From: a virus
Reading direction: 5' to 3' (one strand)
Virus genome (UHGV): UHGV-0176695
DNA length: 18,106 bases
Shown here: positions 455-13,694 of the stretch, piece by piece
How positions within the stretch are numbered: the first letter of the stretch is position 1
Layout of the letters: every line of letters starts with the position of its first letter
The notes under the pieces: generated by a model
What the model was told of the DNA's origin: nothing
Databases searched by the model: none
The model's input: only the letters and a program-made list of their open reading frames with translations
Position numbers and translations under genes: made by a program

Positions 455-2542
455 TTATTTTTTCACTTTGACCATACCTCGCCAGTCAAGTGGTGCCACA
501 CCAGCATCAATGCGCACCTTGAAGGCTGCGCCATCAATCGTAAAGCCCTGTTGCTGTTCCAGATATGGCGTATCAATACCATCAAGATAAGCCACTTCAA
601 TCGTGTCACGCCCCTGCGCTGCCACCAGGTAATAATCCGTCGGACTGTTGTCATCAAGACGGGCTTCTGACAAAACTGTGACGAAATTCTGGATCGGGTT
701 AATAATGCCGCTGTTCGCATCTGCACCAGGCACACTGGCAGACTTAATCAGTTGATTAGCTCGCGACTCAATGGCTACAGGCGTCAGCATAAAAGCAGGA
801 CGAATGTTCAGGCGACGGTCACCTGATTTCTGGAGCAGCATGGCTTTACGCCCGGAATCCAGCCCTTCAATAGACAAATCTGCCGTCACCAGGTTGCCAT
901 GATCTGCATGGAACAGCGGTTTGCCATCCGACATTTTGGGGTTGCTGGTCAGCACAGCCCAGACCAGATCTCCCACAGTAGTGCGTGCTGCCGCCCCCAT
1001 AGCCATCGGAATACGGGTCAGCATATCCAGGTCATCATTGATGATGGTCTGGCGATCAATGCTGAACAATTCGCCATAAGTCGCCAGTGCAATCGGTTCG
1101 CCACGATCTTTCAGCGTTACATACTTATATTCAGCGCCCGGTAATACCTGACGCAGCGTCGGGAAAGTTTCCAGCCCGACGCGGTGCGCTGTTTTAAAAT
1201 CGGTCAGCGTTCCCTTGCGGGTCCACTTGTCAAAATTTTCGCTGGCCTCATCCCAGCCCTGCAACGCGGCTTTATGGGCCACATCCATCAGGATATTGCC
1301 GAAATCGCTGTTGCTGTGAGTGAATGCCAGTCCAACCATCGCCATGGGCGCGGAATGACCGGAAATACCGATGCCGCGATCAACCAGCGAAGCACGCGCC
1401 AATTCACGCAGTGTAAAGCCGTTATAGGCATTGTCTTTTTCTGCTTCGGCATATCCGGCGCGCGCCATGACAGCTGCACGAATGGAATCGCCAACCAGAT
1501 TACCGTTTCCTGCATGAATATGAATGGCTCCCGGACCTGCACTTGGTGTCGTTCCGGCTGCCAGCGCCTGCAACAGTTTTTCACGGGCCTGTGCTTCCGT
1601 ACAGGTCATGTCGTTCAGACACTCCGCTTTCAGGTCGGCATAAGACGGGAAAGAGGCAAATACTGCAGTTACAGCCTGCACACGTTCCGCATTGGCTGCC
1701 ATCAGTTGTTGCTGAACCTGCGAAGCAATTGCGCTGATATCCACATTTCCGGTTGATGGCACCTGCTGAGCAGTTGTCTGTTGTGCATTTTGCGGGGCTG
1801 TTTTCGGTTCCTGCTGCTGTCCGTTCGTCGTTTCTGCACGCGGAGCAAAAAGCGCGTTAATCTGTTCTGGCATGTTATGGTAATCCTTCAGTTTATTTTG
1901 ATTCACACAGGCCGCAGCCTGTAATTCAGGTTCAAGCGTATCAGCGAAGCCTTTTTCCACAGCTTCAGCACCGTTCATCCAGGTTTCTGCTTTCAGCATG
2001 GCTTCCAGCTCCTCCTGCCCGAGTCCGCTTTTATTCATGTAGGCTGACAGCATCAACGCCTCGTTGCGATCCAGCCAGTCGGCATAATCACGCATATCAT
2101 CCGCATCGCCGGAAGCGCCGCCCCACGGCTTGTGTATCATCAGCCAGGAATTCTCCGGCATATGTACTGTGGCGCCGGGCAGGCAGACAATCATGGAGGC
2201 CATGCTGGCAGCAACACCATCCACCCAGATATCCACCTTTGCTTTCAGGCGTGACAGCGTGTTAAAGATGGCAAAGCCCTGCATCACATCGCCGCCCGGG
2301 CTGTGAATATGCAAATCAATGGCGCTGGCCTCAAACACCCCCGCTTCCTTACAGTCATTGATGAACTGTTGTGCTGAAATCCCCCATCCACCAATTACGT
2401 CATAAAGAAAAATTTCCACCCGCCCGGCAGTCTGTGCCCGGATTTCGTACCAGCACTGACCATTAGCGGCATCCACCCCCGCAAGGCTGGCACGGGGATT
2501 AATTATCGTCCCGCGAAGACGCGGACTTGTCATTTGCTGCAT
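455..2542 (-). CDS. Fused head maturation protease (ClpP/S49-like) - linker - major capsid protein
   Basis: 695-aa ORF. The N-terminal ~190 aa carry a ClpP/S49-type serine peptidase region (HIHSPGGDV...MASMIVCLPG...HKPWGG); a Q/A/T-rich low-complexity linker follows, then a ~400-aa capsid-like C-terminal part. Sits after the portal gene as C-Nu3-E does in lambda. AAGGAG ribosome-binding site upstream of ATG 2542; a second in-frame ATG lies at 2533. Confidence 0.8.
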   Translation of the reverse strand: MQQMTSPRLRGTIINPRASLAGVDAANGQCWYEIRAQTAGRVEIFLYDVIGGWGISAQQFINDCKEAGVFEASAIDLHIHSPGGDVMQGFAIFNTLSRLKAKVDIWVDGVAASMASMIVCLPGATVHMPENSWLMIHKPWGGASGDADDMRDYADWLDRNEALMLSAYMNKSGLGQEELEAMLKAETWMNGAEAVEKGFADTLEPELQAAACVNQNKLKDYHNMPEQINALFAPRAETTNGQQQEPKTAPQNAQQTTAQQVPSTGNVDISAIASQVQQQLMAANAERVQAVTAVFASFPSYADLKAECLNDMTCTEAQAREKLLQALAAGTTPSAGPGAIHIHAGNGNLVGDSIRAAVMARAGYAEAEKDNAYNGFTLRELARASLVDRGIGISGHSAPMAMVGLAFTHSNSDFGNILMDVAHKAALQGWDEASENFDKWTRKGTLTDFKTAHRVGLETFPTLRQVLPGAEYKYVTLKDRGEPIALATYGELFSIDRQTIINDDLDMLTRIPMAMGAAARTTVGDLVWAVLTSNPKMSDGKPLFHADHGNLVTADLSIEGLDSGRKAMLLQKSGDRRLNIRPAFMLTPVAIESRANQLIKSASVPGADANSGIINPIQNFVTVLSEARLDDNSPTDYYLVAAQGRDTIEVAYLDGIDTPYLEQQQGFTIDGAAFKVRIDAGVAPLDWRGMVKVKK

Positions 2543-7137: not shown

Positions 7138-7437
7138 TTACTCAGTAACTACCGCGCCTTTCGGTAATTCCATACCGGCAAATACCGGACAACCAGGATG
7201 ACGATCATCTTCTGTTGCTTCCAGCATTGACTCACCAAACCACTCCGTCGTGGCGCGACCATCAGCTGCTTTGTAGTGGAGTAAGTACTGATTTTCGCCA
7301 CCCGCATACTGAGCGCGAGCTTTAACCTCACCCCATTCATCACTGATGCATACTTCCACCAGTTGTGACAGTTCAAACTTAAACGGAACAGCCACGGCAC
7401 CAATTGCAATCGGTTTGTTTTCTGTTTTTTCCATCAT
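7138..7437 (-). CDS. Hypothetical protein (about 100 aa)
   Basis: Track ORF 7138..7485 trimmed to tandem ATGs at 7437/7434, preceded by an AGGAG ribosome-binding site; begins MMEKTENKPIAIGAV.... No family recognised. Confidence 0.5.
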   Translation of the reverse strand: MMEKTENKPIAIGAVAVPFKFELSQLVEVCISDEWGEVKARAQYAGGENQYLLHYKAADGRATTEWFGESMLEATEDDRHPGCPVFAGMELPKGAVVTE

Positions 7438-7608
7438 CGTCTCCTGATATCGAAGCCCGTCGCCGCACCAGGCACTGATCAACATTTGAGTATTCGCAGC
7501 GTCAGAAAGAATTTATTTTATTGAGTAGCCACAAACACAGAATTTCATGCTTTCCGGACGCGAACGCATCCTTCATTTTTCAGCAAAATATTCTGCTCTT
7601 ACAGGCGA

Positions 7609-7791
7609 TCAATTCTGTGTGCACCGCCGAACGCCATCAATAAGCTGGCAGACCTGAGAAGCCGTATCGAAAAGCTGACGCGCCTTATCCAGGCTGACGC
7701 ACCCCACCAATAAAAAAGGCACCAGTATCGCTACCAGTGCCCATTTCGCCGCCGTTCGCGGCATTCTGTGTGTCCAGTGTTTTCGGCTCAT
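7609..7791 (-). CDS. Putative small lipoprotein (signal peptide plus lipobox LLVGC)
   Basis: 60-aa ORF; ATG at 7791 with a GGTGGTGA ribosome-binding-like element; hydrophobic N-terminus ending in the lipobox L-V-G-C, then about 30 residues with two further Cys. Tightly coupled to upstream small ORFs (TGA-C-ATG). Confidence 0.5.
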   Translation of the reverse strand: MSRKHWTHRMPRTAAKWALVAILVPFLLVGCVSLDKARQLFDTASQVCQLIDGVRRCTQN

Positions 7792-7875
7792 GTCACCACC
7801 AACGTACAGCCCAAATCAGAACAGCGACCGCCACAAGGCGAATTGCAAAGGCCGTTGCCCGAATTAAATCAGCAC

Positions 7876-8025
7876 TCATCTGTTTAAATAAATTGTTGTG
7901 TATGCAACCAGTGCGGTACAAATAATCCATGCAACTGGCGTCAGTATGTGCCTGATACCCCGGCATACCGCGATGATTTTTGCGGCATCATCAGCCCCCT
8001 GCGGAGTGGTTTCTGCTTTTATCAT
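7876..8025 (-). CDS. Putative small membrane protein with a C-terminal transmembrane segment
   Basis: Track ORF 7876..8115 begins at GTG; the best ribosome-binding site (GGAGAT, about 9 nt) precedes ATG 8025, giving MIKAETTPQGADDAAKIIAVCRGIRHILTPVAWIICTALVAYTTIYLNR. Its stop overlaps the ATG of a 28-aa hydrophobic ORF (7793..7879). Start and reality uncertain. Confidence 0.3.
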   Translation of the reverse strand: MIKAETTPQGADDAAKIIAVCRGIRHILTPVAWIICTALVAYTTIYLNR

Positions 8026-8118
8026 CAGATCATCTCCAAATTTATCTTTCGTCGTGTTAGGCTTTACTGGCATGAATGATCCCCATGCGCATTCACAAAG
8101 TGAATCCATAAACACAAA

Positions 8119-8144
8119 GCCCCGATTGCTCCAACAACCGGGGC
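8119..8144 (-). terminator. Bidirectional intrinsic terminator-like hairpin
   Basis: GCCCCG-14 nt loop-CGGGGC (plus 8119-8144), with TTTATTTTTTATTT on the plus side and TTTGTGTTT on the minus side; lies 8 nt after the stop of the 93-aa gene. Confidence 0.45.
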
Positions 8145-8152
8145 TTTATTTT

Positions 8153-8434
8153 TTATTTACTGGTATGAGTACGGCATTTAGCTATTTCATTCCGGGCTTT
8201 ACTGTCTCCGCGACAGATACAACGCACCGTGTCTCCGGTCAGCGTGGTGATGTAGGCTTCATCCGTTTTTTCCACCGAAATGCATGGTACATTTCCATCC
8301 TGGCAATACTCCACTTGGGCAGCAAGGTGAGTGTTGCGCGGGTAAAATTCCAGGCGATACATATTCCCCAGAACATGCACTTCTTCAACCTGACGCCCAT
8401 CTTCCGTTACCGTGATTTTTTTCAGTGCGTACAT
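8153..8434 (-). CDS. Hypothetical Cys-containing protein (93 aa)
   Basis: Track ORF trimmed to ATG 8434, preceded by a GGAGG ribosome-binding site; MYALKKITVTEDGRQ...; five Cys in the C-terminal half; no transmembrane segment; directly downstream of the endolysin. Confidence 0.5.
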   Translation of the reverse strand: MYALKKITVTEDGRQVEEVHVLGNMYRLEFYPRNTHLAAQVEYCQDGNVPCISVEKTDEAYITTLTGDTVRCICRGDSKARNEIAKCRTHTSK

Positions 8435-8504
8435 GCGTACCTCCGTTCTTTCGTTTTTTGAGCAATAAAAAAGCCGCTCATGGCGGCCCTGTATGTTTTG
8501 CAAG

Positions 8505-8882
8505 CTATCGCTTCAATTGAAAATGTGGACCGTCTTTAAGCGTCCGCCAGTCCCCGCCCCATTCGATGGCGATTCCCAGCTCTGCGGCAGCCTGCTTAAA
8601 TGCCTGTGCGATTTTCTCGTACAGAGGCCAGTCCCATGACACCTGACTGCCAACGTAAGCCACAACATCCACCGCATCACCGGTCAGGTGGCGGCTGTTC
8701 ATGGTCTGGCTTTTCCCTGCCGCAACCAGTTGTTTCTGACGATACTTACTGCGCAGGCCTTCCGTAATACCGAAATCAACCTCCGTAAGCTCCAGCGCAC
8801 GGCGAACGACAGCAACCAGCTGTGGTTTAACGCCCTCCAGATTCTTTTCGCTGCGACGACTAAATCTGAATTTACCCGACAT
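8505..8882 (-). CDS. Endolysin, peptidase M15 family (L-alanyl-D-glutamate endopeptidase type)
   Basis: ATG at 8882 with a GAGGTGA ribosome-binding site (the track start at 8888 is GTG). Contains the zinc-ligand motif S-x-H-x2-G-x-A-x-D (SRHLTGDAVD) and a C-terminal His (WGGDW...DGPHFQ), typical of VanY/M15 phage endolysins. Confidence 0.8.
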   Translation of the reverse strand: MSGKFRFSRRSEKNLEGVKPQLVAVVRRALELTEVDFGITEGLRSKYRQKQLVAAGKSQTMNSRHLTGDAVDVVAYVGSQVSWDWPLYEKIAQAFKQAAAELGIAIEWGGDWRTLKDGPHFQLKR

Positions 8883-8884
8883 AT

Positions 8885-9160
8885 TCACCTCAACAATGGA
8901 AAGATTTTTGTGACGTTCCCGCGTGCGCGTATCACCAGCACGCAGAACAGCAGGTTAAAAAACACTTCCAGCCAGCCCGTTGCTAACGGGCGACCACACA
9001 GATAGCTGAGGGGGGCAAAGGCATACAGCAGCATCAGCAGCCAGGCCAGCCATGACATCAGCGGTTTATGTCTGGAATCACGACGACGATAAAAAAAGAG
9101 CGTCAGCACGATAACCGTGCATAACGCCACATTCAGCAATCCGGGAAGGTTACTTAACAT
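8885..9160 (-). CDS. Holin or antiholin-like membrane protein (three predicted transmembrane segments)
   Basis: Track ORF trimmed to ATG 9160 behind a GGAGGAGGAGG ribosome-binding site; 91 aa with three hydrophobic segments; overlaps the upstream membrane-protein gene by 11 nt and is followed directly by the endolysin. Confidence 0.5.
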   Translation of the reverse strand: MLSNLPGLLNVALCTVIVLTLFFYRRRDSRHKPLMSWLAWLLMLLYAFAPLSYLCGRPLATGWLEVFFNLLFCVLVIRARGNVTKIFPLLR

Positions 9161-9542
9161 TGCCTCCTCCTCCACCCCGCAGACGGGAGAACAGGCTGGA
9201 CACCAGTGATGCAATATCCTGCTGGTGGATGAACGAGAGAATCTTCACCGACACCACTGACACCAGCACTGCACACAGTGCGTCGACAGGCGCACCGTCA
9301 AACCCTGTATGCTTTACCAGCCAGGATGCCAGAACCTCTGCGCCCAGCACGCCAATAATGAACGACACCAGAAAATGCGCCGCCACACGCCAGGCTGAAA
9401 GCGCCTGCGGCATCGTTGCCACAAACAACGCCCCAGCGAACGCACCAAACACAATCCCGAAATCCGTTCCGGTAAACAGCCCGAATACCGTCGCCCCGCC
9501 GAGCGCCGCAGCCGTGCCGGAACCGGATAAGGGTTCAGACAT
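9150..9542 (-). CDS. Putative holin (multi-pass membrane protein, 130 aa)
   Basis: Track ORF 9150..9680 trimmed to ATG 9542, preceded by AGGAG with a 7-nt spacer; the longer ORF would run through an upstream terminator. Gly/Ala-rich hydrophobic segments; first gene of the lysis cassette. Confidence 0.5.
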   Translation of the reverse strand: MSEPLSGSGTAAALGGATVFGLFTGTDFGIVFGAFAGALFVATMPQALSAWRVAAHFLVSFIIGVLGAEVLASWLVKHTGFDGAPVDALCAVLVSVVSVKILSFIHQQDIASLVSSLFSRLRGGGGGNVK

Positions 9543-9556
9543 ACTTTTTCTCCTGT

Positions 9557-9580
9557 AAATAAAAAAGGCCACCAGCGGCC
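9557..9580 (-). terminator. Intrinsic terminator immediately upstream of the holin ribosome-binding site
   Basis: Minus-strand hairpin GGCC-GCTGGT-GGCC (plus 9567-9580) followed by TTTTTTATTT (plus 9557-9566), then AGGAG and the holin ATG. Confidence 0.45.
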
Positions 9581-9664
9581 CGTAAAAAAACACCCCATCA
9601 AAGGCACCCGCAGATGCATTTTGTATGGTGTTATCTGATGTGATGTACGCCGGACGTGGCGCGG

Positions 9665-9694
9665 ATATAAAAAAGGCCACGCAAGTGCGCAGCC
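9665..9694 (-). terminator. Intrinsic terminator downstream of the cargo gene
   Basis: Minus-strand RNA hairpin GGCUGCGC-ACUU-GCGUGGCC (8 bp including two G-U pairs; plus 9675-9694) followed by UUUUUUAUAU; lies 8 nt after the TGA stop at 9704..9702. Confidence 0.5.
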
Positions 9695-9701
9695 CGATGA
9701 T

Positions 9702-10286
9702 TCAGAGATTTTCGAACGATTCCTTTTTACGACTCCAGCCTTCTATCTTCGGAAGAGATGCTTTGCCAAATTTCACCTCATTCATCGACATTAAGATACT
9801 GTCTTTGATGAACTCGCATATCTCGTTAAATTTTGCGTACGTATCTACGTGCGAAAATGTTCTGGCCTGATAACCATCAACTGAAATCGTTATGTTATCA
9901 CCATCAAGCAAAAGAATCTTTACACCGACTTTCACCCATTCCGACTGCCGCGGGTTGTCATCAATGACAGTACATAAATCAAATTCAACACCATCCTGAA
10001 GCTCAACCCTCAAATCCTCAGGTTTATTAACGTGTCCGCGCCACGATATATAAACATACGGACGTTCTTTGCCGTTAATATCACGCCACTGCGAGGCAGG
10101 CAGTTCCAGAGAATTTTCATAAACACTGACTAGCCTTTTGGCGGTATCCCGCAACCGCTGAATGTATCCCTGCTCAGCTTTCAGTATTTCGGCCCGTTTT
10201 GCCCTGATATCCACATAAGTGACCACTGTATCAATCCTCTTATGAACAAATAAACAAGCCATCATAATAACCGCCAGGGTATACAT
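9702..10286 (-). CDS. Cargo (moron) protein of unknown function; N-terminal hydrophobic anchor, coiled-coil-like segment, beta-rich C-terminal domain
   Basis: Open frame 9702..10391, but the track start is GTG and the extension runs through two terminator hairpins. First ATG after them is 10286 (MYTLAVIMMACLFVHK...). An alternative GTG about 60 nt further downstream (VVTYVDIRAK...) has a better ribosome-binding site (AAGAGGA, 8-nt spacer) and would remove the anchor. Region is clearly more AT-rich than its flanks. No family recognised. Confidence 0.5.
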   Translation of the reverse strand: MYTLAVIMMACLFVHKRIDTVVTYVDIRAKRAEILKAEQGYIQRLRDTAKRLVSVYENSLELPASQWRDINGKERPYVYISWRGHVNKPEDLRVELQDGVEFDLCTVIDDNPRQSEWVKVGVKILLLDGDNITISVDGYQARTFSHVDTYAKFNEICEFIKDSILMSMNEVKFGKASLPKIEGWSRKKESFENL

Positions 10287-10309
10287 GAAAAAGGCCCGCC
10301 GCAGCGAGC
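10287..10309 (-). terminator. Intrinsic terminator abutting the cargo gene start
   Basis: Minus-strand hairpin GCUCGC-UGCG-GCGGGC (plus 10294-10309) followed by CUUUUUC, then ATG 10286. Confidence 0.4.
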
Positions 10310-10332
10310 CATAAAGAAACAGGATTCTGAAT

Positions 10333-10356
10333 AAAAAAAACCGCCTGGTACGGCGG
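10333..10356 (-). terminator. Intrinsic terminator downstream of the tRNA genes
   Basis: Minus-strand hairpin CCGCC-GTACCA-GGCGG (plus 10341-10356) followed by eight U (plus 10333-10340). Confidence 0.55.
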
Positions 10357-10718
10357 CTGAAATGGTCAAAAGAACACGTTATATATGTCACAACATTTGA
10401 GGCGTCGGGTGCCTCCCGAAGTATTCAGCCCTGCATGAACACTGTGACTTCCCGCTAAACCGACTCTTTAAATCACCCTCGCACTGAGGAACGCCTCTGC
10501 GGTGTCATTACAACACCAGAATGATGCATCACCGACCCTGCCAGGAAATACAAAATCTCCACCAGCAATGCACCATTCTGCTGCCGTAAAAAAATCAGCA
10601 CTGAGGCTAACCTGGCCTCAAATCATAGCCAGAGAACAGAATGTCTCTTAAAACAACCCGCTCCCACGTAATAAAAAATACGCCAGTGCTGCAATACAAT
10701 AAGGCTTATTTCAAATGC

Positions 10719-10793
<75 letters not shown>

Positions 10794-10796
10794 ATA

Positions 10797-10872
<76 letters not shown>

Positions 10873-11041
10873 ATTGGTTCCTCAGGAAAAATAAAAATGA
10901 CCGCGCTTTACATCCCCCTCGGAACCGAAAAAGAATATTAATGAGGACAGACACTTTTTCAATCAAAAACCGTGTCAATATTCGTAAATATATGTATAGT
11001 TTTCCATTAGTTATGAAATTCAGAAATAATGACACGCACAT

Positions 11042-12088
11042 TTAACGATTATTTTTTATTTCAATTACAGTCTGGTTAAATCTCTCTTCTTCCAGTTCCA
11101 CACCTATTGCACGCCTTCCCAGCGATAATGCTGCTTTTATTGTTGACCCCGACCCCATAAAAAAATCAGCGACCAAATCTCCCGGATGGCTGCTGGCGGT
11201 AATTATCTGACGCAACATATCCGCCGGTTTCTCACAGGGATGTTTGCCGGGGTAATACTGCACAGGCTTGTGCGTCCAGACATCCGTATACGGAACGGCA
11301 GCCGATACGGAAAAATAACGCCGCAGGGATTTGTACTCCTCCAGCAGACTGGCATATTGCCGGTTCAGTTCACTGTATGTGCTGACCAGCTGGTGGTGTG
11401 GCTTTTCCAGTTCACCGCGCTGATGTTTTTCTGCTGCAACACGCGCAAACAACGCCTGTAATTTCAGATAATCGCCTTCGTTCGGCAACTGCCACTGACT
11501 GGTGCCAAACCAGTGCGAAGCCATGTTTTTCTTTCCGGTGGCTTCCGCTATCTGTTTTGACGTTATTCCCAGTAATTCACGCGCATCACGAAAGTAAGAA
11601 ATCAGCGGGGCCATGACGTGCTGTTTTAGCTCGCGCCCCTTTGCCGCATAGCCGTCATTTTTGGGCTGGTATGGCCCCTGATAATGTTCAGCAAACAGAA
11701 TGCGTTCTGTTGCCGGAAAATACGCCCGCAGGCTTTCCTTGTTGCACCCGTTCCAGCGCCCGGACGGCTTCGCCCAGATAATGTGGTTCAGCACATTAAA
11801 GCGTTCACGCATCATGATTTCGATATCAGATGCCAGGCGATGACCACAGAACAGGTAAAGACTTCCGGCAGGCTTTAATACCCGCCAGAATTGCGCCAGA
11901 CACTGGTCCAGCCATTTCAGATAATCATCGTCGCCCTTCCACTGGTTATCCCAGCCTTCGGGCTTCACTTTAAAGTATGGCGGGTCTGTGACTATCAGAT
12001 CGACAGAGTTTTCCGGTAAGGTCTGGATAAATTCCAGGCAATCAGCGTTGATTAACTCACAACTGGATATTTTCACAGTATTAGCCAT
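11042..12088 (-). CDS. DNA methyltransferase, beta-class amino-MTase (N6-adenine or N4-cytosine); no adjacent restriction gene
   Basis: 348-aa ORF with ATG at 12088; catalytic motif IV DPPY (LIVTDPPYF) near the N-terminus and the AdoMet-binding motif FFMGSGST near the C-terminus, the circularly permuted order typical of the beta class. Neighbours are tRNAs and a small HTH gene, not an endonuclease. Confidence 0.85.
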   Translation of the reverse strand: MANTVKISSCELINADCLEFIQTLPENSVDLIVTDPPYFKVKPEGWDNQWKGDDDYLKWLDQCLAQFWRVLKPAGSLYLFCGHRLASDIEIMMRERFNVLNHIIWAKPSGRWNGCNKESLRAYFPATERILFAEHYQGPYQPKNDGYAAKGRELKQHVMAPLISYFRDARELLGITSKQIAEATGKKNMASHWFGTSQWQLPNEGDYLKLQALFARVAAEKHQRGELEKPHHQLVSTYSELNRQYASLLEEYKSLRRYFSVSAAVPYTDVWTHKPVQYYPGKHPCEKPADMLRQIITASSHPGDLVADFFMGSGSTIKAALSLGRRAIGVELEEERFNQTVIEIKNNR

Positions 12089-12238
12089 AGATCAATAAGC
12101 ACTTCTCTGATAGGCTCATTCTGCTTTTGCGCAAAGCAGATGGGCCTGAGGTTTGCTTGTGACCCCAACGCATGAGCAGATGGCTGGCAGGTGCCGCTAA
12201 CACCCACCAGCCGCCCATTACCACAAATTAAAAAGCCT

Positions 12239-12436
12239 TCACTGCGGAAGGCGTCTGTAACAACCGAACTGATAATCTGCCAGACCCGCCATAACAAGCT
12301 GGGTCAGTATTAACTGGCAGCGTTCGCGTGAAAGGTAAGTATTCTGTGCAATCTCCCCGACGGTCGCCGGTTCGCTGACGCTTAACTCATTAAACACCAC
12401 TCTGGCGGTTTCGGTCATATCCTGCTGTTTTAGCAT
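12239..12436 (-). CDS. Small helix-turn-helix-like protein (65 aa), possible transcriptional regulator
   Basis: Track ORF 12239..12559 trimmed to ATG 12436 (AAGGA ribosome-binding site); the longer form would run through the upstream terminator. Candidate HTH segment TVGEIAQNTYLSRERCQLIL. No family recognised. Confidence 0.4.
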   Translation of the reverse strand: MLKQQDMTETARVVFNELSVSEPATVGEIAQNTYLSRERCQLILTQLVMAGLADYQFGCYRRLPQ

Positions 12437-12559
12437 GTCTTTTTTCCTTTTCTGGTTAACGTGACATACCAATAACTCTTGTCCAAAAAGCCAGCAAGCT
12501 GAAAGACCGGCATTCGCAACCACCAGCGCATTTAACGTCCTGTACCGCTTTTCGGGCAC

Positions 12560-12582
12560 AAAAAAACCCGCTTGGCGGCGGG
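12560..12582 (-). terminator. Intrinsic terminator about 50 nt downstream of the late promoter (tR'-like)
   Basis: Minus-strand hairpin CCCGC-CGCCAA-GCGGG (plus 12567-12582) followed by seven U (plus 12560-12566). Confidence 0.6.
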
Positions 12583-12636
12583 TTTTGCTTACTTTGCCAT
12601 CGCGTACAAAATCGGCAAAATATCAGATTTGCATGA

Positions 12637-12665
12637 AATATATGCTTTTTAATCTACTTTTGCAA
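12637..12665 (-). promoter_or_regulatory. Sigma70-type promoter just downstream of the Q-like gene (candidate late promoter pR')
   Basis: On the minus strand: -35 TTGCAA (plus 12660-12665), 17-nt spacer, -10 TATATT (plus 12637-12642). The -35 overlaps the last codons of the Q-like ORF. Confidence 0.45.
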
Positions 12666-13338
12666 TACTTTGCTTTGAAAATGCCGCCTTTTGTTCCAAA
12701 CGCGTTCTCATTACCAACAATAAAGCCTCACTATCCAGCTGGTGGAAAATGTGTTTCATTGCAACCCAGTGACCAGTAAATGTTTTGGACCAGTTTTTAG
12801 TTGTCACTCCCGCCAGTAATGCCAGATCCTGGTATTCATAACCTTCCCCGCCAAAAAGTTCTGCTTTTACTGCCTGCGCCGCCAGCCAGATTAATTTTTT
12901 CAGGCGTTCCCGTGTTTTCTCTGCAATTTTCCTGTTGCCAGAATGAGCCTTAAACTCTTCCCATGCCCAGCGGGTTATGGTGACCTGATACTCCCAGCAA
13001 ATATTTCCGCTGTAACACCACAACAACCAGGTTTTATGAGGTTCTTCAAGAGACAGAACAGCCCGTCGCCATGAGGATGTCGAAAACTCAACCTGACTTA
13101 CCAGAGGAATTGACGTCCCCTTCGCCAGCGATTGTTTCCCCGGGATTGGTGGATTATCCCGCGTGATCATTTTTCCAGTCACTTCATCGCGGTACCGGAT
13201 TTTTTTACGCCTGTAACGCCCTGTATCGAACATGGCATTCTCCTGCCAGGCTTCAAGCTGACCTTTTGTTGCCCCACTCAAATCGGCGGTGGCGATAATG
13301 AGCTGCTCACGAACAAACTGTAAATACTGGTTATTCAT
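12649..13338 (-). CDS. Putative late-gene antitermination protein (Q-like)
   Basis: 229-aa ORF; ATG at 13338 overlaps the RusA stop (ATGA). Sits directly downstream of rusA and upstream of a promoter-terminator pair, the classical lambdoid Q position. Assigned by synteny and architecture, not by recognised sequence motifs. Confidence 0.45.
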   Translation of the reverse strand: MNNQYLQFVREQLIIATADLSGATKGQLEAWQENAMFDTGRYRRKKIRYRDEVTGKMITRDNPPIPGKQSLAKGTSIPLVSQVEFSTSSWRRAVLSLEEPHKTWLLWCYSGNICWEYQVTITRWAWEEFKAHSGNRKIAEKTRERLKKLIWLAAQAVKAELFGGEGYEYQDLALLAGVTTKNWSKTFTGHWVAMKHIFHQLDSEALLLVMRTRLEQKAAFSKQSIAKVD

Positions 13339-13694
13339 GCGCACTCCAGCCCTGTGATTTTTATCCCCAACCGACCACCAGGAACGACCTGACCGCGCAC
13401 AATATTAATTTCATCAAACTGCTCGTCGTCGATAAGCAACCCCGCATGTGTCAGTGCATCCAGTGGTGCTTTCAGAATATTGTCCAGGTCACGACGGCGC
13501 TTATCCGGCGGCTCTGCAATGATCTTTATCGCCAGCCTTCCGGACAGGTTTAATTTCAGCCGCTGCTGGTGAACAATAAGCGCCACATCCCGGCGATAAC
13601 GCTCACCGACTTTTGATACAAAATATGTGCTGCCACGACGTCGCCAGTAGGTGTTCACCGTCGGCGGGTAAGGCAAAACAAACTCTATATGCAT
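13335..13694 (-). CDS. rusA: RusA-family Holliday junction resolvase
   Basis: 119-aa ORF; ATG at 13694 with an AGAGG ribosome-binding site. Sequence (LPYPPTVNTYWRRRG...PDKRRRDLDNILKAPLDALTHAGLLIDDEQF) matches the E. coli RusA pattern (LPWPPSNNRYY...[23 protein letters not shown]) from memory. Confidence 0.85.
   Translation of the reverse strand: MHIEFVLPYPPTVNTYWRRRGSTYFVSKVGERYRRDVALIVHQQRLKLNLSGRLAIKIIAEPPDKRRRDLDNILKAPLDALTHAGLLIDDEQFDEINIVRGQVVPGGRLGIKITGLECA

Follow-up and report, generated by a model that had tools for sequence, protein, structure and literature searches.

A two-holin, M15-endopeptidase cassette as the probable host-lysis gene set of a phiP27-like lambdoid prophage of Escherichia coli

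How does the phage represented by the virus genome UHGV-0176695 open its host cell? The window, i.e., the whole stretch of 18,106 nucleotides (nt) that was analysed, carries on its minus strand a cassette of three genes, two of which encode multi-pass membrane proteins (here called holin1 and holin2) and the third a putative zinc endopeptidase. This cassette contains, with a probability of roughly 0.85, the genes with which a phiP27-like lambdoid prophage of Escherichia coli lyses its host. The computed part of the analysis comprises gene identities, catalytic residues, synteny, and the conservation of the holin pair and of a hairpin in front of it. The cassette is real, it was correctly interpreted by an earlier account made from the nucleotides alone (hereafter the sequence-only reading), and it is already known. 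Its genes are:

9542..9150, minus strand: holin1, 130 amino acids (aa), Pfam family Phage_holin_8
9160..8885, minus strand: holin2, 91 aa, Pfam family Phage_holin_3_7
8882..8505, minus strand: endolysin, 125 aa counted from the ATG, a cytoplasmic, signal-less M15C (LAS) zinc peptidase

The coordinates and lengths agree with the two overlapping membrane-protein genes that the sequence-only reading had placed ahead of an endolysin gene. The overlap between holin1 and holin2 is 11 nt long, with the ATG of holin2 inside GGAGGAGGAGG, the stretch that encodes the poly-glycine tail of holin1. The holin2 gene in turn adjoins the endolysin gene, its stop codon being separated by 2 nt from the endolysin ATG (an alternative GTG start at 8888, upstream of this ATG, gives 127 aa). 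Translation of holin1 is served by the ribosome-binding site AGGAG at 9554..9550, 7 nt upstream of its ATG. All three proteins score above the Pfam cut-offs and have PHROG matches to lysis families (1e-38 to 1e-75), while no PHROG match was obtained for the plus-strand open reading frames (ORFs) over the cassette (9160..9558, 8688..9005 and 8493..8639). Because of these matches, and because the overlapping plus-strand ORFs match nothing, the cassette genes cannot be taken for chance ORFs.

The same set of genes is present in several toxin-carrying phages and prophages. At the DNA level, the cassette is 92-94% identical to L28-L30 of phiP27 (NC_003356; 93.6% with the endolysin gene included) and to phiSTEC1575-Stx2k, and 87% identical to the LT-II prophage SerU-LTIIb; the protein identities to phiP27 are 96.9% for holin1 (L28) and 98.9% for holin2 (L29). 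At least 80% of the cassette is found in 304 of 5426 complete E. coli genomes (best match 96.4% identical), holin2 occurs at 96-100% identity in 80 IMG/VR contigs, and the window itself agrees with a metagenome scaffold in 12363 of 12378 bases. With phiP27, phiSTEC1575-Stx2k and SerU-LTIIb the window shares the three genes, their order, the 11-nt overlap, the hairpin before holin1 and a downstream lipoprotein gene. It differs from this group in two respects: where the relatives carry a toxin in the upstream cargo slot, the window encodes a 194-aa protein, and it has a 94-aa gene and small ORFs between the endolysin and lipoprotein genes. L28-L30 were annotated as two holins and an endolysin as early as 2002, and the NCBI pipeline labels the genes “putative holin”, “phage holin family protein” and “M15 family metallopeptidase”. 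The Actinobacillus phage vB_Apl-pPE4 (PP818812.1, 18166-20258) also carries the cassette and the lipoprotein gene, and its DNA is there about 90% identical to that of E. coli prophages. Its recorded host, Actinobacillus pleuropneumoniae, belongs to the Pasteurellaceae, a surprising family in this context; the host may have been wrongly assigned, or the sequence may be contaminated. Upstream of its phiP27-type cassette, phiSTEC1575-Stx2k encodes an additional class II holin and a protein of 114 aa (7852-8416 of this locus, L001), and thus carries parts of two lysis systems.

For the enzyme, an M15 zinc endopeptidase had been proposed in place of a lysozyme or transglycosylase, and Pfam, PHROG and Protein Data Bank (PDB) matches bear this out, with all zinc-binding and catalytic residues kept. 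The protein matches Peptidase_M15_4 (PF13539; 48.1 bits, cut-off 25, E = 1.7e-12) and PHROG 465, “endolysin” (3.5e-75), and its zinc-peptidase motif consists of H65-x6-D72 and D117-x2-H120. The best match among solved structures (phmmer) is ChiX of Serratia marcescens (PDB 5opz, E = 5e-44), which is 59% identical across 120 residues without a gap; further PDB matches are the phage L-alanyl-D-glutamate endopeptidases 8q2g and 23ri (62% identity to 23ri) and EndoT5 of phage T5 (2mxz). In the gap-free alignment, the zinc ligands His68, Asp75 and His123 of ChiX coincide with H65, D72 and H120, its catalytic Asp120 with D117 and its Arg47 with R44, and the active-site tryptophan of EndoRB49 and EndoT5 corresponds to W112 (for the roles of the zinc ligands, catalytic aspartate and tryptophan in these enzymes, see PMC5778951; PMC10487532). 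ChiX, EndoRB49 and EndoT5 have been proven by biochemistry to be L-Ala-D-Glu zinc peptidases (PMC5778951; PMC10487532), and the phiP27 orthologue of the endolysin has already been listed among the M15C peptidases (PMC10487532). The endolysin of the window is presumably an M15C LAS zinc L-alanyl-D-glutamate endopeptidase as well, a bond specificity suggested by its 59-62% identity to the characterised enzymes. Like them, it is a single-domain protein without signal peptide that requires a holin to reach the wall: no hydrophobic segment was found in it (the peak 17-residue Kyte-Doolittle mean is 0.86), therefore it has neither a signal nor a signal-arrest-release (SAR) sequence, and a hole-forming holin is needed.

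Two proteins of the cassette are candidates for this task. The sequence-only reading had considered them a holin and an antiholin, or a two-component holin, which is the standard annotation for such a pair and accords with the placement of both in curated holin families; the record of Klebsiella phage Seifer labels its homologous pair “hypothetical Holin-antiholin”. Holin1 matches Phage_holin_8 (PF16931, “putative phage holin”; 80.7 bits, cut-off 26.4, E = 1e-22) and PHROG 198, “holin” (1.3e-42). Its hydropathy profile indicates four hydrophobic helices with many small-xxx-small motifs and a C-terminal amphipathic helix, and a single-sequence AlphaFold2 (AF2) model of low confidence (predicted local distance difference test, pLDDT, 57) places helices at residues 7-24, 27-41, 48-79, 84-105 and 111-123. 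Holin2 matches Phage_holin_3_7 (PF05449; 77.9 bits, cut-off 25.4, E = 6e-22) and PHROG 217, “holin” (1.6e-38), and has three hydrophobic segments, for which AF2 (single-sequence, pLDDT 66) gives helices at 5-28, 34-54 and 58-90. Its charge map displays a strongly basic RRRDSRHK loop (residues 25-32) and a basic C-terminal tail (78-91), from which the positive-inside rule alone would predict an N-out/C-in orientation. Holin2 hence appears to follow the class I pattern and resembles lambda S in size and predicted topology, although it belongs to a different sequence family. The earlier statement that neither membrane protein resembles lambda S accordingly holds for the sequence family and fails for the length and class of holin2, with its 91 aa, three predicted helices and basic tail. 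Inspection of both sequences revealed no dual start of the lambda type in either gene, and no experimental study of Phage_holin_3_7 was found in the literature searched.

The two holin families are tightly linked. Every holin1 record in the phage collection has holin2 directly downstream, and the order Phage_holin_8, then immediately Phage_holin_3_7, is seen in the window, phiP27, phiSTEC1575, Rac-SA53, mEp390, HK639, Seifer, MA11, EPP-1 and BUCT554. A solitary holin2 appeared at first to exist in 32 phage records retrieved by tblastn, but all four that were inspected (Seifer, MA11, EPP-1 and BUCT554) carry a diverged Phage_holin_8 gene directly upstream, and there is thus no evidence for a solo holin2. 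An apparently solitary holin1 on Salmonella IncF plasmids is a pseudogene with an internal stop, without holin2. In the Salmonella plasmid CP119493 (L095, 2496-2861), this pseudogene lies beside the binding-subunit gene of a subtilase-family AB5 toxin, an arrangement on IncF conjugative plasmids that looks like a prophage remnant with its toxin cargo.

What changes from lineage to lineage is the endolysin next to the pair. It is of the M15 type in the window and the phiP27 group, GH108 with PG_binding_3 in the LT-II prophage Rac-SA53 (which differs from the window in this respect) and in EPP-1 according to a Pfam scan, an epsilon15-like lysozyme in mEp390 according to a note in its record, with an enzyme of similar size in HK639, GH19 in BUCT554, and a muramidase or lysozyme-like protein in MA11 and Seifer (record annotations). 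Since the pair is kept beside at least three different endolysin types, holin1 and holin2 travel, and presumably work, together. In mEp390, HK639, Seifer, BUCT554, EPP-1 and MA11, both families are present in the same order, overlapping or abutting, right before the endolysin gene; the holin proteins of these phages, however, are only 29-51% identical to those of the window, and their endolysins, where typed, are of the glycosidase type. In their records, mEp390 and HK639 have Rz-like spanins and Seifer an o-spanin that comes after an unassigned membrane protein; in BUCT554 a DUF2514 protein follows the endolysin.

The features of the window that bear on the expression of these genes are:

9581..9556, minus strand: hairpin GGGCCGCTGGTGGCCT followed by TTTTT(A)TTT, found by consensus scan, ending 1 nt before the AGGAG of holin1
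9695..9674, minus strand: stronger intrinsic terminator, right after the cargo gene, some 130 nt ahead of holin1
8490..8470, minus strand: terminator-like hairpin with T-run, right after the endolysin stop codon (-11.1 kcal/mol, z = -2.0)
13344..12649, minus strand: gene for the antiterminator Q, 231 aa (Pfam PF06323, Phage_antiter_Q, 4.3e-88)
12665..12637, minus strand: candidate promoter pR', TTGCAA-17-TATATT
12586..12563, minus strand: candidate terminator tR', a hairpin with T7 (pR' and tR' both come from a consensus scan and from reading the sequence directly)

A terminator directly before the holin ribosome-binding site had been described by the sequence-only reading, and a hairpin with a T-run is indeed found there. 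Its fold is weak, i.e., about 5 pairs and -8.7 kcal/mol (z = -0.10 against shuffles). In 76 of 78 related loci, however, it is present, always equally far from the start codon, and 36 of the 40 stem cells with a pair other than the commonest one across these loci are C-to-T changes that keep G-U pairing; the case for a real hairpin is based on this conservation and on the wobble-compatible stem changes. The same hairpin is visible in the KanR_FW primer of a recent study on toxin release (PMC12571312) when the primer is compared with positions 9540-9590 of the window. That the structure is not a terminator at all, and instead stabilises the mRNA, modulates translation as a 5' structure or is simply inherited sequence, is unlikely. 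The short stem, no stabler than shuffled sequence, would suit such a role, as would the distance between hairpin and ribosome-binding site, which is fixed in all relatives, and the presence of a far stronger terminator 110 nt upstream. Yet a GC stem passing directly into a run of T5-T7 is the signature of a terminator, the stem changes are nearly all of the kind that preserves pairing, and the distant phages mEp390 and HK639 have unrelated, strong terminators at the same place, 50-58 nt ahead of their own holin1.

The terminator at 9695..9674 has a 9-bp stem with 6 GC pairs and a T-run (-14.9 kcal/mol, z = -3.5), and none of 200 shuffled sequences equals it. Terminator-like sites are three times more frequent in 7400..12500 than in shuffles (18 versus 6.0 +/- 2.4), with sites on the coding strand at 12252, 10621, 10358, 10310, 9695 and 9581, and a scan detected no promoter-like site on the coding strand between 9700 and 9542. 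The Q gene and, directly after it, the candidate pR' and tR' lie 3.1 kb upstream of the cassette on the same strand, in what looks like the classic pR'/tR' layout, and by analogy with lambdoid phages the two sites would act as late promoter and Q-sensitive terminator. The proposal that the lysis genes need antitermination is supported because terminators precede holin1, no promoter-like site intervenes, and Q is encoded upstream; lysis-gene expression would thus depend on Q. In ordinary lambdoid design, cargo genes stand between terminators, which shield the lysis genes during lysogeny, and terminators read through under Q ahead of the lysis genes are the normal lambdoid arrangement. Together with the annotation of the same cassette in phiP27, this removes the novelty that the sequence-only reading had implied.

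The lysis genes of lambda (S-R-Rz/Rz1) follow the logic proposed for the window: they form part of a late operon under Q antitermination, encode a cytoplasmic endolysin gated by a holin and lie between Q and the terminase genes. Lambda differs from the window by its dual-start holin, its transglycosylase and its Rz/Rz1; the window has a second membrane-protein gene, a peptidase and no Rz/Rz1, and several cargo genes and terminators are placed between its Q and holin genes. The cassette would function as a canonical holin-endolysin system, but it belongs to the phiP27 type and not to the lambda S/R/Rz type.

This raises the question of how the outer membrane is breached. Neither inspection of the ORFs nor a six-frame lipobox scan detected an Rz/Rz1 spanin or an embedded Rz1 in the window, and no ORF of the i-spanin type, i.e., with an N-terminal transmembrane helix and a periplasmic coiled coil, lies between the endolysin and terminase genes. 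Two small genes downstream of the endolysin are of interest here:

7791..7609, minus strand: outer-membrane lipoprotein precursor, 60 aa, lipobox LVGC with valine at +2, PHROG 7528
7879..7793, minus strand: hydrophobic peptide of 28 aa, its stop abutting the lipoprotein start (57-aa form from 7966)

Apart from two short chance matches, the lipobox scan yielded a single ORF, that of the 60-aa lipoprotein, and its signal peptide is credible. The mature form comprises 30 aa with 3 cysteines, is not proline-rich and lacks a conserved partner. At least 51 loci keep the ORF intact; variable columns fall 17/11/30 on its three codon positions, and 55% of the codon differences are synonymous; because of this third-position bias and the synonymous differences it is a real gene. 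It is found downstream in 69 of 80 related loci and constitutes the usual fourth gene of phiP27-type cassettes, beginning 12 nt past the endolysin stop in about 33 loci and following a terminator and an ORF for a 37-aa hydrophobic peptide in about 25. In the window it is displaced by a terminator-bracketed 94-aa gene and small ORFs inserted after the endolysin gene. The lipoprotein has been named the phiP27 o-spanin, with the shortest periplasmic length of all spanins (PMC6139136). The i-spanin proposed for phiP27 in that study, a 64-aa ORF with a TTG start antisense to a 90-aa ORF, was rejected as a general partner: the insertion that carries it is missing in the window and in most of the related loci. 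In E. coli NY1601 (L004, 3085-3552), a 155-aa lambda-like Rz with an embedded 68-aa proline-rich Rz1 directly follows the same endolysin, and an IMG/VR contig (L072) has a 55%-identical Rz at the same position. Since NY1601 has Rz/Rz1 in place of the lipoprotein, the outer-membrane module is exchangeable.

The surroundings of the lipoprotein gene show several further peculiarities. An 11-bp hairpin with a T-run (7742..7717) lies within its signal-peptide codons and is almost invariant among loci. The C-terminal transmembrane segment of the 28-aa peptide, AFAIRLVAVAVLIWAVRWW, is conserved in L041-type loci, a subset of the related ones, and the peptide gives a weak match to PHROG 4493; the small ORFs at 7793-7966 and 7876-8115 (both minus strand) overlap, and each ends in a hydrophobic segment. 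The 94-aa protein (8153-8437, minus strand) is cysteine-rich, belongs to PHROG 33497 and occurs in only about 9 of 80 related loci. Its gene is bracketed by the terminator at 8490..8470 and a second one at about 8146..8110 (-25.6 kcal/mol), and looks like a moron inserted between endolysin and lipoprotein.

Lysis might then proceed as follows. The cassette would be transcribed only within the late operon, from a promoter just past Q and by RNA polymerase that Q has modified, and this polymerase would pass tR', the terminators flanking the methylase, tRNA and cargo genes, and finally the small hairpin before holin1. In the lysogen, the same terminators would stop transcription of cargo and tRNA genes from entering the lethal lysis genes. 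Translation of the three lysis genes would be linked by the 11-nt overlap and the subsequent 2-nt gap. Holin1, with four helices, and the class-I-like holin2, with three, might build up in the inner membrane and act jointly; after triggering, the folded, signal-less zinc endopeptidase would leave the cytoplasm via the holes and cleave the L-Ala-D-Glu bond of the peptidoglycan stem peptides. At the outer membrane, the conserved small lipoprotein would be the only candidate, Rz/Rz1 not having been found in the window.

Several points weigh against this account. No spanin was found in the window, which leaves the described lysis pathway incomplete; the AF2 models of holin1 and holin2 are of low confidence (pLDDT 57 and 66); the hairpin before holin1 is thermodynamically weak in the window and no stabler than shuffled sequence; and the calls of pR' and tR' are consensus matches only. 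A further point arises from published genetics. In Stx2e strains, replacement of the 130-aa homologue of holin1 abolished the enrofloxacin-induced release of Stx2e, and plasmid-borne holin1 restored it in trans (PMC12571312, published in 2025). Compared with positions 9100-9150 of the window, the knockout primer KanR_RV of this study falls in the first codons of holin2, and the deletion therefore also removes the holin2 start. Complementation nonetheless succeeded with holin1 alone, a result that suits a hole-forming holin1 no less than a regulatory one.

The canonical hole-former is most likely holin2, with holin1 as an obligatory partner that serves either as co-holin or as timing regulator, and two other assignments of these roles have to be weighed. 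A reversal, in which holin1 (Phage_holin_8) is the true hole-former and holin2 an antiholin or accessory protein, is possible but doubtful. Holin1 alone on a plasmid rescued Stx2e release in mutants that also lacked the holin2 start, and it conferred the release phenotype on two non-responsive strains (PMC12571312); this assay, however, records toxin in the supernatant rather than hole formation (PMC12571312), and any small membrane protein over-expressed from pUC57 can render cells leaky. Moreover, holin2 has the textbook traits of class I, i.e., about 90 aa, three predicted helices and a strongly basic, presumably cytoplasmic loop and tail. In phage P2, with its lysis genes Y-K-lysA-lysB-lysC, a three-helix holin is accompanied by a four-helix membrane protein, encoded separately, that adjusts the timing of lysis. 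The four-helix holin1 is reminiscent of this LysA-type regulator, and the pairing of a three-helix holin with a separate four-helix membrane protein would be common to both systems; in P2, however, the four-helix gene follows the endolysin gene and spanin genes are present. The other assignment, also tentative, is that holin1 and holin2 form an obligate heteromeric (two-component) holin, neither protein being active alone. Whichever endolysin follows, their genes adjoin or overlap in each of the lineages examined; an intact copy of either gene on its own was not found, and the gene overlap suggests translational coupling and a fixed stoichiometry. A holin/antiholin pair would co-occur just as strictly, though, only about nine lineages were inspected by hand, and complementation by holin1 alone speaks against strict interdependence. 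An extension of this idea holds that the Phage_holin_8/Phage_holin_3_7 pair is obligate, its members never occurring apart, and that in the phiP27 group the place of a spanin is taken by the outer-membrane lipoprotein of 30 mature residues, which would breach the outer membrane unaided by an inner-membrane protein. It is rather improbable; if true, the lysis system would comprise four genes and include a new kind of outer-membrane step.

It is very improbable, by comparison with the preferred view of a phage lysis gene set, that the cassette has been domesticated for non-lytic or subpopulation-restricted protein release, like ChiWXYZ or the type 10 secretion system. Such a function is brought to mind by ChiX as the best solved relative of the endolysin (59% identity), by the AB5 toxins Stx2e, Stx2k, LT-II and Epl that adjoin related cassettes, and by the promotion of Stx2e release by the holin1 homologue in strains reported to be without complete phages (PMC12571312). 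The window, however, contains intact genes for Q, terminase, portal, protease-capsid and head-tail proteins in normal order and no toxin gene, and the record of phiP27 describes a complete phage genome that has a cos site. ChiX itself belongs to a chromosomal operon for chitinase secretion that has no phage genes, and its partners there are the lambda S-like ChiW and homologues of spanins. Homology of the window's holins to ChiW was considered and rejected, as ChiW belongs to the lambda S-like family and to neither holin family of the window. Only the peptidase matches a ChiWXYZ component; because its holins are of other families and it is flanked by phage structural genes, the cassette is not a secretion system of the ChiWXYZ type.

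The remainder of the window is consistent with its assignment. It represents a lambdoid late region on the minus strand, with RusA, Q, a DNA methylase, tRNA-Thr, tRNA-Gly, the 194-aa cargo gene, the lysis genes and small genes, followed by the small and large terminase subunits, head-tail adaptor, portal and protease-capsid genes. The 194-aa cargo protein (9702-10286, minus strand) has an N-terminal hydrophobic segment, belongs to PHROG 5091, has no Pfam match and is flanked by terminators on both sides. In relatives, its slot holds AB5 toxins: Stx2e, Stx2k, and LT-IIa together with a pertussis-like toxin. Between the methylase and cargo genes lie tRNA-Gly(TCC) and tRNA-Thr(TGT) (10719-10872, minus strand), in a slot that holds other tRNAs (Ile, Arg, Met) in phiP27 and phiSTEC1575; an Rfam scan of the window returned these two tRNAs and no other RNA family. 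In a single 695-aa ORF (455-2542, minus strand), a prohead protease domain of the ClpP type is joined to a major capsid domain (Phage_capsid_4).

As a discovery the cassette matters little, because it has been in GenBank since the sequencing of phiP27, is routinely annotated by NCBI, and contains an endolysin of a family with solved structures and biochemistry. It has some practical relevance because cassettes of this type accompany the AB5 toxin genes of Stx2e, Stx2k and LT-II, and because the first holin has been tied to the drug-induced release of Stx2e (PMC12571312). The 2025 study states that there is no endolysin downstream of stx2e, and the M15 metallopeptidase gene is never mentioned in it (PMC12571312); the gene directly after both holins, however, encodes an M15 peptidase in phiP27 and in 72 of 80 related viral contigs, and the endolysin may therefore have been overlooked.

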